A stretch of 30,370 nt of DNA, from positions 1-30,370 of the IMG/VR virus record IMGVR_UViG_3300031861_000378; one strand, given 5' to 3'. Each line of letters opens with the position of its first letter. Position 1 is the first letter of the stretch. The notes beneath the pieces are model-generated. The model did not search any database, had not been told where the DNA came from, and saw only the letters and a list, made by a program, of their open reading frames with translations. The position numbers were made by a program, and so were the translations under genes. Origin of the DNA: a virus (Duplodnaviria; Caudoviricetes). Of the stretch, positions 1,118 through 11,173 are shown piece by piece.

Positions 1118-1675
1118 CTACCTGGCTACTCGACGCTTCACGCCGAGGGTCTGACGCAGGGTGCCGACCTCGCCCGTGGCGGTATCCACCACCTTGTTGC
1201 GCTGTCGCACGCGATCAAGGCGGAACGTCCGTGGCTCGCTGCGCAGATGGCAGAAGCCCATAAAGTAAATATCGTCGCTCCAGCCGCTGCCAGAACTGAC
1301 CACCTTATGCACCGTTACCTCTCGGTCAGAGTAGTCGCCATCGGAATTGCGATAGGCAAAGCGGATCTGCTTAGAACCCGTCCAGATCGTCTCGCCCTGC
1401 ACATGCTCGTCGTTGAAGTCACCGCGCGCAGGGGTGGCCGGCGCCTGCTGGCGAGAACGCACGAAATCAGTTTTAAAAGGCTCCGGTGAGCCGCTGCTCT
1501 TGTTGGCGCGGTAGACCTTCATCCCCTCAGAAAACCAACCGACAATAGCGATCACATAGACCACGGCGACGACAATCCAAGCCCAGCCGGCCCAGTCGAA
1601 GAACCACAGGAAAGGGACAGCAAGAATTGCGAGGCCCACCATAGGGCCTTTGAAATCGGGGTAATCCATGCTCAC
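1118..1675 (-). CDS. Membrane-anchored WYL-domain protein
   Basis: N-terminal hydrophobic segments ([15 protein letters not shown]; [18 protein letters not shown]), polar linker, then WYL signature [18 protein letters not shown]...[20 protein letters not shown]. Start reassigned to GTG 1675 (AAGGAG 6 nt upstream); ATG 1669 is the alternative. Confidence 0.85.
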
Positions 1676-1695
1676 GAAACGCTCCTTGTCAGTCG

Positions 1696-1935
1696 TTACA
1701 CAGGGCTGACTTGCCCAGCCGCTGGGGCGATCTGGTCGGCCATCATCCACAGCGTGTATTTGCTGAAACGTGGGTGGGTGGTGATTTTGATCAGCTCCAG
1801 GGCGCTGATATCCCTACGGCGGGCCAGCTCGTAGTTTTTGTAGGTATCCAGACTGATGGCCACGGTGCCGGCCATATCGGATTGGGTCAGCCGCTCGGCC
1901 CTGCGGATCTGGCGCAGCTTTTCGCCCAGGGTCAT
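1696..1935 (-). CDS. P2 C-like immunity repressor, paralog 2 (XRE HTH)
   Basis: MTLGEKLRQIRRAERLTQ...KYTLWMMADQIAPAAGQVSP resembles the P2 C C-terminal motif (KYTLWFMTNQIAPESGQIAP); ATGA overlap with the upstream paralog. Confidence 0.88.
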   Translation of the reverse strand: MTLGEKLRQIRRAERLTQSDMAGTVAISLDTYKNYELARRRDISALELIKITTHPRFSKYTLWMMADQIAPAAGQVSPV

Positions 1936-8380: not shown

Positions 8381-8603
8381 AATCCTCGCCCGCTACACCA
8401 GCAACACCTATATGGCCCGAGCCAAGGGCTACAAACAGACAGCTACCAACACCATCGGCCCGCGTGACGCCGCTGCGGCCCTGGCTCGAAAGCTCGAGCT
8501 TGACCCTGTCGGCATGCGCTATGTCACCGACCATGGTGGAAAGCACTTCGACACCCACGTGTTTGATTTCCCAGCTGAGGATCTGGGGGAAACTCCGGTC
8601 TGA
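8370..8603 (+). CDS. Hypothetical protein
   Basis: 77 aa, overlaps the upstream stop; last gene before the terminator. Confidence 0.68.
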   Translation: MPVEILARYTSNTYMARAKGYKQTATNTIGPRDAAAALARKLELDPVGMRYVTDHGGKHFDTHVFDFPAEDLGETPV

Positions 8604-8627
8604 AATTTGGTTTTAACAGCTGTATTT

Positions 8628-8652
8628 AGGGGCGCAGATGCGCCCCTTTTTT
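8628..8652 (+). terminator. Intrinsic terminator of the early operon
   Basis: AGGGGCGC-AGAT-GCGCCCCT followed by a T tract. Confidence 0.85.
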
Positions 8653-9023
8653 ATTGCCGTAATTCCAAGATTAAAACACCATATTGGTGTTAAGCCGTCT
8701 CAATACAATATCAATGTACCGCGCAATAAATTGCACACCTAATAGTTGAACATCCAGCCGCAGGCCGCGAAAACACTGGAATGCTCTTTTGTACATTTGT
8801 GCTTATGTACTCGAAACCATAATTAAGTATTTATTTAATCACATAATTCGCGCTTTCGTTAATTAGCGAATTAACACAAAAAACCGAAGTGCAATATATT
8901 GCGCACTTTGCCATCACCTACCACGAAACCCACAGAACGCAAGGCCTCCCGCTTCCCACGCGGGGAAACGAAACCCTTCATTCCCGCACATCGGAATTGA
9001 AGAAAGAAAGATTCAAAAAGTGC

Positions 9024-9060
9024 TTGACCGCACAAATTTTAAATAAGTAAAGTCCGCCCC
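9024..9060 (+). promoter_or_regulatory. Putative sigma70 promoter
   Basis: A-rich UP-like tract, TTGACC, 18 bp, TAAAGT, then GC-rich CCGCCCC. Confidence 0.55.
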
Positions 9061-9091
9061 GTTGAATCTGCCCAGCATGGAGTAAGCGGCA

Positions 9092-9298
9092 ATGGACAAA
9101 CAAAAAAATAGCGTTATAGCCACACGTGATGAAGTTGATGAAGTGGCCCAAGTTCTAAGTTTTCTAGGGTGCGCGATTGGCGGTGTTGCACTGGGCGATT
9201 ATGAGCGGGGTGGTGCACAGGTGGTGGCTGAGTGGTCGGCCGAACGGCTACGGAATTGCTCCGCAGCGATGGGTCAGGCTGGCAGTGCGCCCAGCTGA
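9092..9298 (+). CDS. Hypothetical protein convergent with ogr
   Basis: GGAG RBS, own candidate promoter, 68 aa; 3' end overlaps ogr by 25 nt. Confidence 0.55.
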   Translation: MDKQKNSVIATRDEVDEVAQVLSFLGCAIGGVALGDYERGGAQVVAEWSAERLRNCSAAMGQAGSAPS

Positions 9299-9531
9299 TC
9301 AAACAATTGGCGCTGTTGCGCTGCTGGAAGCTGACGTAGGCGGTCGAACAGCAATTGATCGACCGCCCCGGCAGCAGGGCGAAGGGCGTGTGAGTAGGTG
9401 AGGTTCATTACAAAGGTGTGGCCACACACTGGGTTCAGGCACTGGCAATAAAGCCTGGCAAACTCCACGGACAGTTCGTCACGCGAAGCAATCCGAGCCT
9501 TACCGCTACATTCCTTGCAATGGATCCGCAC
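9274..9531 (-). CDS. ogr: Ogr/Delta-family zinc-finger late transcription activator
   Basis: CKEC...YCQCLNPVCGHTF signature; GGAGG RBS, GTG start. Confidence 0.93.
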   Translation of the reverse strand: MRIHCKECSGKARIASRDELSVEFARLYCQCLNPVCGHTFVMNLTYSHALRPAAGAVDQLLFDRLRQLPAAQQRQLFDQLGALPA

Positions 9532-9606
9532 TGTGCCCTCCCCCGAAGGTGTTCAATCGGACACTATTCTGCCACAACATCTAGTAACTAGAGCCTGCAA
9601 AATATA

Positions 9607-9813
9607 CTACGGGTAGTCCTCACCACCGTTGGGGATGCGACAACGATGTATCCGCCCCCACGCCATACGCGCCCCTCTCAGCGGCCCATGCTTTTGGATA
9701 GCAAGCATGGCGTAATTGGAACAGCTGGGCTCAAACCGACAAGCCCCCCGCAACCGTTGGGGGGCTATCGCTTGATAAAGGCGAATCAACGCCAGTAGCA
9801 AGCGGGTGATCAT
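9607..9813 (-). CDS. yidD: YidD-like membrane protein insertion efficiency factor (haemolytic domain)
   Basis: LIRLYQ...CRFEPSCSNYA...HG...G...RIHRC...GG-D: three-Cys YidD signature with an amphipathic N-helix. Confidence 0.9.
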   Translation of the reverse strand: MITRLLLALIRLYQAIAPQRLRGACRFEPSCSNYAMLAIQKHGPLRGARMAWGRIHRCRIPNGGEDYP

Positions 9814-10052
9814 CGTGGTTTGCGGAACGTAATGACGTAGTAAGCCGAGTTGCTGGCCTTTTTACCGGCCAGCGCATCAAAACAGCCGACCTGAACGGCC
9901 ACACCGACGGTATCCACCCGGTAGAACTCCCAACCCTGATCAGCGTACTGATTAGCGATGCTTTCCAGATACACGGCGGCTTCATTTCCCTTGTGTTTAC
10001 TGGCTTTGACTTCAATGTTTGGCGGAACCTGGACCATCTTGTATTCGTACAT
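9810..10052 (-). CDS. DUF4177-like protein
   Basis: MYEYKMV...LESIANQYADQGWEFY...ITFRKP pattern; AAGGA RBS; ATGA overlap with the yidD-like gene. Confidence 0.8.
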   Translation of the reverse strand: MYEYKMVQVPPNIEVKASKHKGNEAAVYLESIANQYADQGWEFYRVDTVGVAVQVGCFDALAGKKASNSAYYVITFRKPR

Positions 10053-10177
10053 CGGCTTTCCTTAAGGTCATCGTGGCCCCTTGCCACTCACCGATACTAA
10101 AACGGACGCAATCACCGCGCCATCCAAGTCAGGTGCGCAAACGCATAGTGGGCTGAACACGTAAATCGCTGACATTG

Positions 10178-11173
10178 CTAGGCCACATCAAACACTACCC
10201 GTCGATCTGCGCGCAGCACGTCGTTGATCTGCAGAAACAGCCGGCAGATCGGTCGGATCTCGTTGTTGGTGTACACCCGATCGATCTTTTCAATATCGCC
10301 AAAGCCGCCCGCGTTCTCCGGCATGATGCCGGCCAACGCCGGATTCATGCGCCAGGCTGCGATCACGTCCGCCCTGGTGATGTTTTTGATCCGTTCGAAT
10401 TCATCTTTTGTGGCCACGTCGCCCACGGGGATGATCTGAATCGCCTTCTCGCTGCCGCCTGGGATGTTGACGAACATAGAGCGGAAATTGCCCACCCCCT
10501 TGCTCGCGCTGATCTGTGATTTCAGCGCGTCTTCGTCCTCTTCGCTCAAGTCGGGATCGTTGGTGTAGAAGATGAAGCCCGCGTGCGCGCCGTTGTTGTA
10601 GTAGCGACGGCGGAACAGGGTGGCGGACTCGTTTAACAGCAGCGAGTGCATGCCGCCCAGGTAGTCGGGCACGCCGTACACGTCCTGTTCCACGTCGTAG
10701 TCCATCACGTGTTCTATCTCGTCTTCGGCAAAGTGCAGTTCCTGGCCGTTGGGTAGCAGCATCACGAAACCGCCCCCGACCTTGCGCCGCATGTTGATAG
10801 CCGGCAGGTGGCGCAGCTCTAGCACCTGGCCAATGATGTTGCGCAGGCGCTGAAAATACGCCTCACCAAACACCATGAAATCAAGCGCGGCACGGCCCAT
10901 GGTCTGCGCGCTGCAGCCGGCTGACGCCTGGAAGTCACGCAGCAGCAGGTTGCGCTTGAAGCGCGGAATGGTGCCGTGGTGGGCGTTGGCTCGCAGTAGC
11001 TTGGCCAGCCCGGTGCGCGATACCGGGGGCGTGTAAATGCGCCCGTCGTCGCTGGCGAACACGCCCAGGTACTCGCCCATGTTGCTGGCCAGCACGGATT
11101 CCGGCGCTCCGAATGAGAACATCCGAGGCGGCTTTGACTGCTGCTGTTGATCCTGCTGTGTGTGCTTTGCCAT
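10178..11173 (-). CDS. Q: Portal protein (P2 gpQ / PBSX-type)
   Basis: FSFGAPE, YGVPDYLG, LLNESATLFRRRYYNNGAHAGFI, GNFRSMFVNIP, GGFGDIEK; start set at ATG 11173. Confidence 0.95.
   Translation of the reverse strand: MAKHTQQDQQQQSKPPRMFSFGAPESVLASNMGEYLGVFASDDGRIYTPPVSRTGLAKLLRANAHHGTIPRFKRNLLLRDFQASAGCSAQTMGRAALDFMVFGEAYFQRLRNIIGQVLELRHLPAINMRRKVGGGFVMLLPNGQELHFAEDEIEHVMDYDVEQDVYGVPDYLGGMHSLLLNESATLFRRRYYNNGAHAGFIFYTNDPDLSEEDEDALKSQISASKGVGNFRSMFVNIPGGSEKAIQIIPVGDVATKDEFERIKNITRADVIAAWRMNPALAGIMPENAGGFGDIEKIDRVYTNNEIRPICRLFLQINDVLRADRRVVFDVA

Follow-up and report, generated by a model that had tools for sequence, protein, structure and literature searches.

A mobile DUF4177–YidD gene pair in a P2-like provirus and a possible cysteine motif recognised by YidD

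The cassette between portal and ogr

The window analysed here, 30,370 bases long, is the complete provirus record of a P2-like phage. Profile searches identified P2 head genes, a tail of the HP1 type, Cox and an integrase, while a Toprim primase (phrog_1139) replaces gpA. Between its portal and ogr genes lie two small genes with an ATGA overlap, whose coordinates and flanks agree with a preliminary description of this DNA (Table 1). The second gene encodes a member of the YidD family, scoring 70.6 bits against PF01809 (cut-off 27) and 75.2 bits against TIGR00278 (cut-off 40), and the three cysteines earlier ascribed to it are indeed retained. Its helix 2-16 is amphipathic with a moment of 0.62, and the model is helical. 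For the product of the first gene the assignment to DUF4177 stands with a qualification: the match to PF13783 over residues 2-45 is weak and below the cut-off (23.9 bits, E 5e-5; cut-off 25 bits), while phrog_12383 is matched strongly (E 9e-30), homologues carry the PF13783 annotation and partners further removed score above the Pfam threshold. No transmembrane segment is predicted in either protein. Sequence searches found no solved relative of either, the matches to cytochrome c3 being at chance level.

Table 1 Features of the cassette and its flanks (window coordinates)
Feature	Position	Strand	Basis or remark
DUF4177-like partner, 80 aa	9810..10052	-	ORF call, profile searches, predicted model, selection
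YidD paralogue, 68 aa	9607..9813	-	Cys25/Cys31/Cys58, amphipathic helix 1, 0 transmembrane segments
Hairpin tip of DUF protein: Gly56-Cys57 with the short helix at residues 56-64	9861..9887	-	
ATGA stop/start overlap of DUF gene and YidD gene	9810..9813	-	putative translational coupling
TAAGGA ribosome-binding site of first (DUF) gene	10059..10064	-	
Inverted repeat of 5 bp, conserved (putative hairpin of the 5' leader, or operator)	10073..10087	-	
TAGTAT candidate -10 hexamer, -35 not recognisable	10094..10099	-	
Whole inserted cassette (~0.6 kb)	9586..10177	none	composition and absence from relatives
ogr/Delta late activator (PF04606), downstream flank	9274..9531	-	
Portal protein (PF04860), upstream flank	10178..11173	-	

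The cassette stands out by its composition (GC 54% vs. 60%; GC3 0.61-0.65 vs. 0.77-0.80). The three closest portal relatives are without it, and in the contig comparison the relatives jointly skip 9586-10188; one sequencing run that may be the source shows no difference from this DNA. Both genes are under purifying selection, with pN of 0.05-0.23 against pS of 0.69-0.99 in seven relatives, where synonymous sites are near saturation. The closest carriers of the cassette are Pseudomonadaceae.

The ribosome-binding site that had been attributed to the pair belongs to the DUF gene and recurs, weaker in one remnant, across eight aligned close relatives, while inspection of the YidD gene revealed no clear site of its own. 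Translation of the YidD gene thus probably depends on the ATGA overlap, and among 96 pairs the two genes are spaced by -4 or -1 in 57. The candidate -10 hexamer is placed correctly in the preliminary description and a TAnnnT hexamer stands there in 8/8 aligned close relatives, directly upstream of the 5-bp hairpin, but TAGTAT occurs in the window at chance level (2 matches vs. 1.6 expected) and was not called in a promoter scan of the window. The count of the inverted-repeat motif in the window alone is likewise at chance level, whereas the hairpin is kept in 8/8 close relatives and its outer pair is compensated in two. Since hexamer, hairpin and ribosome site recur together in the eight relatives, a leader belonging to the cassette itself is supported.

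Some further features lie close by. A promoter-like TTGACC-18-TAAAGT (window 9024-9298, plus strand) precedes a 68-aa ORF without family match that converges on ogr, and a comparable short ORF occupies the same place near ogr in L003. The stretch at window 8600-9090, past a terminator at 8628-8647 and between the early genes and ogr, is AT-rich and non-coding.

In 80 portal relatives the gap between portal and ogr is empty in 66 cases, holds the DUF-YidD pair in seven, a remnant in one and other cargo in six; as an accessory slot it is real but modest. It falls inside the interval from the replication genes to the portal gene, which has been described as an antiviral hotspot (PMC9122126; PMC13586616). 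As in the gpA-gpQ hotspot of P2, we find accessory insertions at this place, and the cargo of relatives includes a retron I-C RT-Toprim and a DUF4145/PD-T7-4-like gene, in line with the hotspot of the preliminary description. Unlike the hotspot systems, the DUF-YidD pair has no entry in the supplements of these two papers, in which a single 'Haemolytic' row stands among the P2 pseudogene Pfams, and the PADLOC 2.0 models gave no match to either cassette protein at E up to 1. The cargo at L294:7724-9487, L284:6326-7195, L288:7664-9429 and L289:7554-10663 spans a retron I-C RT-Toprim, a DUF4145 protein, a nucleotidyltransferase with a pentapeptide protein, and a group of three genes of which most have no assignment.

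Distribution and ancestry of the pair

The two genes are linked far beyond this phage. YidD lies directly downstream of the DUF gene in 36/37 viral DUF loci and in 58/80 DUF loci from GTDB (58/79 if one unpublished genome lacking YidD is set aside). Viewed from the other gene, 80 viral YidD loci have a DUF gene directly upstream in 74 cases, directly downstream in three and about 220 bp upstream in one, the remaining two loci being at contig ends. A search of metagenomes with an alignment of membrane-anchored YidD proteins gave 80 further loci, of which 52 have a DUF neighbour, in both orders and down to ~25% identity. The viral loci include many near-copies and collapse to 30 lineages; in eight of these the pair follows a repressor-like gene at a distance of no more than one gene, seven have it beside an ogr-type gene, two carry it inside a lambdoid tail region, and the others in varied places. 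Phages, lambdoid tails, plasmids and islands all carry it, in both gene orders, and the GTDB neighbourhoods are diverse, many of the carrier loci being not evidently prophage. On a Klebsiella plasmid the pair adjoins ccdAB, and the DUF gene was matched in six Klebsiella records. In the sources searched, which did not extend to most subscription papers and bioRxiv supplements, we found no paper with DUF4177 and YidD together and nothing on the pair or on a cysteine activity of YidD; in PMC13118837, DUF4177 occurs in a Streptomyces cluster without YidD. The pair is real, mobile and undescribed in these sources, and consists of a YidD-family variant with a dedicated partner. The idea of a coupled, uncharacterised two-gene module, likely membrane-associated, is supported, as is the co-occurrence that had been proposed as its check.

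Phage HP1 carries the pair as orf3-orf2 (NP_043469 and NP_043468) in a cI-orf4-orf3-orf2-orf1-int run behind PL. Both genes are present there in equal order, with 47% and 57% identity, but they are located between cI and int and are annotated as hypothetical, and our searches found no function for them. HP1 DNA gave one partial match in 5426 E. coli genomes. In our window the place where HP1 keeps the cassette, between repressor and integrase, is taken by a gene for a WYL-domain protein (window 1118-1750, minus strand; Pfam E 1.4e-11), possibly an accessory regulator.

The two genes do not always persist together. In phage P88 (L040:383-617) a frameshifted, unannotated YidD paralogue follows an intact DUF gene, and the DUF gene is also intact with a broken YidD in L061 and L076. 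Moreover, at 22 of the 80 DUF loci from GTDB the neighbouring genes include no YidD, and all 22 genomes have at least one yidD elsewhere. If YidD acts on the DUF protein, these lone DUF genes would need the housekeeping copy.

In a sample of 301 Pseudomonadota genomes YidD was detected in 299. The protein is described as a helper in membrane insertion (PMC3573977; PMC8082313) and encoded in the order rpmH-rnpA-yidD-yidC (PMC4863248; PMC10502375). The cassette copy lies outside this cluster, away from rnpA and yidC. Like housekeeping YidD it has a domain above both family cut-offs, the three cysteines, the Tyr/Arg/Asp/Pro pattern and an amphipathic helix, and both are encoded next to a G-C-[LF] protein. 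In contrast to the housekeeping copy, which ends in HP-x-x-x-GG, the paralogue ends PNGG-type, is mobile and DUF4177-paired, and is a second copy in its host: another yidD was present in 22/22 carrier genomes checked, in 19 with an rpmH-like motif nearby. In a quick tree of 73 columns, 70 of 75 partnered YidDs and three tailed forms make up a clade of 73 rows (SH-aLRT support 97%) from which all 44 housekeeping rows are absent, so that the comparison with housekeeping YidD suggested earlier places the partnered copies apart. Since five partnered YidDs fall outside the main clade and the pair L256 is very divergent, the sequences suggest that the pairing arose more than once. Longer YidD relatives have N-terminal membrane helices in 112 of 120 cases. 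At L255:1312-1761 a YidD paralogue with a signal-like N-terminus adjoins a TPR-like gene.

No clear fold match to the YidD model was found in structure searches, and neither its sequence nor its fold gave a likeness to known acyltransferases. In profile comparison the DUF and YidD profiles are unrelated to each other, and no DUF-YidD fusion occurred among 351 proteins checked; the searches for longer proteins scored about 8000 candidates each. A complex prediction from the DUF and YidD alignments with Zn reached 0.24 against a mark of 0.32 and is counted neither for nor against a complex.

The partner protein and the Gly-Cys motif

With 868 representatives at the 50% identity level, the DUF family is a large one, and some members are fused to GYF_2, zinc-ribbon, FHA or TPM domains. 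The predicted model of the cassette protein (pLDDT 81) runs in the order strand-helix-strand-short helix-strand, the short helix (residues 57-61) being carried by a long hairpin that follows the first strand and helix. It has the core in common with DUF4177 but differs from it by the extended hairpin with a Gly-Cys helix and by the tie to YidD. Weak similarities recur to the KCTD H1 domain (KCTD16: Foldseek probability 0.90, E 0.45; Z 5.0, rmsd 4.9, 69 aligned) and to GFRP (Z 4.9, rmsd 4.1, 50 aligned), with scores at background level for the search and no Foldseek E below 0.001. KCTD H1/C-terminal domains and GFRP are ring-forming folds, and by this resemblance of the model the DUF protein might form a ring, although both are eukaryotic adaptors without a link to YidD.

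The family consensus at the hairpin tip is P-G-C-L-x-x-L-F-G. Of 354 non-redundant homologues, 339 retain Cys57, ten have another residue and five are gap rows; Phe or Trp accounts for eight of the ten substitutions, and Ser, Ala, His and Asp do not occur. In a homologue from L369 a hydrophobic Gly-zipper hairpin replaces the motif. The tip G-C-L-x-x-L-F-G is in register with the membrane-targeting sequence of MinD as printed in PMC5471200, and the Cys-free DUF variants resemble the MinD tag. It differs from that tag by its Cys, which replaces the first Phe, and in its position at an internal hairpin tip instead of the C-terminus; moreover, several lineages that retain Gly-Cys have a shorter helix.

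The motif G-C-[FLMIYW] was fixed on the DUF family before the neighbours of YidD were counted. Among the 52 DUF neighbours of the metagenome set, 49 have the Gly-Cys pattern, in two it is seen in incomplete rows and one has a hydrophobic hairpin. Eighteen of the 28 loci without a DUF gene have an adjacent upstream ORF, and 17 of these 18 contain the motif, often two or three times, compared to 18 of 177 other ORFs, a background that is crude because ORFs in housekeeping loci match in 27 of 132 cases. The sole exception is a housekeeping locus with an rnpA-like upstream gene; the remaining ten loci have no usable neighbour, mostly at contig ends. The 17 proteins form three families without similarity to the DUF profile in which Gly-Cys is conserved in alignment, and at family level the motif is found in 3/3 (p about 0.001). 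YidD proteins with long C-terminal tails, all of one family, have Gly-Cys before a hydrophobic helix in 5/5 cases. YidC was checked for the motif after the neighbour count: at housekeeping loci, G-C-[LF]-P is present in the YidC-type protein encoded downstream in 20/20 cases (18 found directly, two one gene further on), this Cys is the only one in nine of the 18 found directly, and 11 of the proteins were confirmed as PF02096. What these YidD neighbours have in common is a short cysteine motif and not a fold. Since most YidD genes examined adjoin a Gly-Cys protein, YidD likely acts on that cysteine.

Several of these neighbours deserve description on their own. An unnamed family of ~230 aa with one to three Gly-Cys motifs lies upstream of membrane-anchored YidD paralogues (L365:1624-2370, L372:1481-2188 and L392:964-2106) and gave no Pfam match above cut-off. 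A second family with a weak bacterial PH match and Gly-Cys is encoded directly upstream of a short YidD paralogue (L377:162-788, L380:399-1061 and L408:1724-2467). At L369:2240-3419 a membrane-anchored YidD is followed by a zinc-ribbon/TPR-like protein with Gly-Cys near its C-terminal helices and then by the Gly-zipper DUF4177-like protein.

Possible functions of the pair

We propose that YidD, located at the surface of the membrane, binds G-C-hydrophobic motifs and probably modifies Cys57 of its partner, most plausibly by attachment of a lipid, which would fix the putative ring-forming DUF protein to the cytoplasmic side of the inner membrane, where it would serve defence or exclusion and would be expressed in lysogens, as its position suggests. 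Recognition of the Gly-Cys motif by YidD is the step we consider rather probable. That the chemistry is lipid attachment is a tentative choice, made because the aromatic and hairpin replacements of Cys57 favour a hydrophobic anchor. An anti-phage outcome, to which the position of the pair points, is possible but somewhat doubtful. As a whole, a mobile pair in which YidD recognises the motif of its partner, probably lipidates the cysteine and anchors a predicted ring protein, probably for defence or exclusion by the lysogen, has in our estimate slightly less than an even chance. It is unlikely, though worth stating, that YidD is in general a motif-directed cysteine-lipidating enzyme at the cytoplasmic face of the membrane, with G-C-[LF] as sorting signal and YidC as its housekeeping substrate, phage copies being used to anchor a ring-shaped DUF4177 defence protein. 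The Lgt lipobox pathway and the eukaryotic zDHHC acyltransferases are cysteine lipidation systems, in which a short Cys motif gains a lipid anchor as would be the case here; however, the DUF partner has no signal peptide and a 68-aa YidD with a Cys triad is unrelated to either enzyme.

Some observations speak against this account: YidD has no likeness to a known acyltransferase, neither protein matches PADLOC, many carrier loci are not evidently prophage, the Cys-less DUF homologues L050 and L101 retain their YidD neighbour, the divergent YidD paralogues L252 and L254 have no Gly-Cys neighbour, 22 DUF genes stand without an adjacent YidD, and only three non-DUF families follow the motif rule. 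In addition, among nine genomes negative for yidD, of which YidC is also absent in four and two are affected by contig-end cuts, YidC retains Gly-Cys in 3/3 genomes without detected yidD at the locus or elsewhere (L446, L447 and L448; rnpA-yidC). Cys-free E. coli YidC is reportedly functional, and the YidC cysteine may be conserved for reasons of YidC itself.

Three conserved cysteines in YidD and one in its partner would also suit a shared metal or redox site, in which the triad holds Zn or Fe-S and the partner Cys provides the fourth ligand or a thiol relay, so that the pair would act as a redox switch or a clasp. The metalloprotein FPM13, a weak match among the fold neighbours of the DUF model (Z 5.2, rmsd 3.8, 65 aligned), fits this idea. 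It is nevertheless unlikely: where Cys57 is lost it becomes Phe or Trp and not His, Asp or Ser, the homologue in L369 substitutes a hydrophobic hairpin, and in-frame TGA, as expected for a selenocysteine YidD, was found in none of the 150 listed among 369 YidD matches in the 301-genome sample. Because Cys is replaced by aromatic residues or a hydrophobic hairpin, we favour a hydrophobic anchor over a metal ligand. YidD could also bind G-C-hydrophobic amphipathic segments as a chaperone without any chemistry, assisting the membrane docking or folding of the third helix of YidC and of the DUF ring alike, which agrees with its reported role as insertion helper (PMC3573977; PMC8082313), with its amphipathic helices and with the motif rule among its neighbours. 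This would leave unexplained the preference for Cys over a MinD-type Phe at position 57 (339 vs. 6 homologues) as well as the three conserved cysteines of YidD, and we consider it distinctly unlikely.

The preliminary description had offered as an example modulation of YidC against filamentous phage assembly or receptor biogenesis, which could be achieved if the DUF loop were a decoy of the YidC motif or the paralogue a dominant modifier, blocking YidC-dependent phage proteins or receptors. G-C-[LF] is indeed common to the DUF loop and YidC, insertion of the Pf3 coat is discussed with the holo-translocon (PMC8082313), and the portal-ogr slot carries defence genes in relatives. Against it, a decoy for housekeeping YidD would not travel with a YidD of its own, soluble Gly-Cys proteins of unrelated families are further partners of YidD paralogues, and no yidC, pilus or inovirus gene occurred among 133 immediate GTDB neighbours scanned; with the separate clade, the second yidD of the carriers and the evidence for the DUF protein or other Gly-Cys proteins as the partner of YidD, this earlier proposal becomes very improbable. 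The other proposal, an effector with an immunity protein or a membrane-acting toxin-antitoxin pair, would account for the small size and coupling of the two genes and their place in accessory slots, for the vicinity of ccdAB on the plasmid and for the reported lysis of cells by YtjA, the Bacillus YidD homologue (PMC3573977). It is weakened since the DUF gene persists beside broken YidD genes or with none adjacent, although a housekeeping yidD is present in these genomes; both proteins lack transmembrane segments, and the motif rule needs no toxicity. We regard it as the least probable of the four.

The main value of the pair, as we see it, lies in a testable hypothesis on what YidD does, a near-universal but little-understood protein for which the cassette offers a small soluble candidate substrate. 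The prediction is precise, concerning one cysteine in a G-C-hydrophobic motif common to the DUF protein and YidC. If the chemistry is lipid attachment, it would be an unrecognised membrane-anchoring modification in bacteria, and if YidD lipidates G-C-[LF], a cytoplasmic S-acylation pathway. The proposal also provides a testable function for orf2-orf3 of HP1 and a candidate prophage defence module across many phage types.

Among 109 proteins chosen by hand (107 neighbours and two window genes), a scan with PADLOC found Zorya II, PDC-M41, PDC-S06, PD-Lambda-5 and others; enrichment of defence genes near the pair is not claimed because the scan had no control. In another phage the pair adjoins zorA-zorB of Zorya II (L037:3-2548), and at L155:1964-4916 one run contains cI, the DUF-YidD pair and a HipA-like kinase with its partner.
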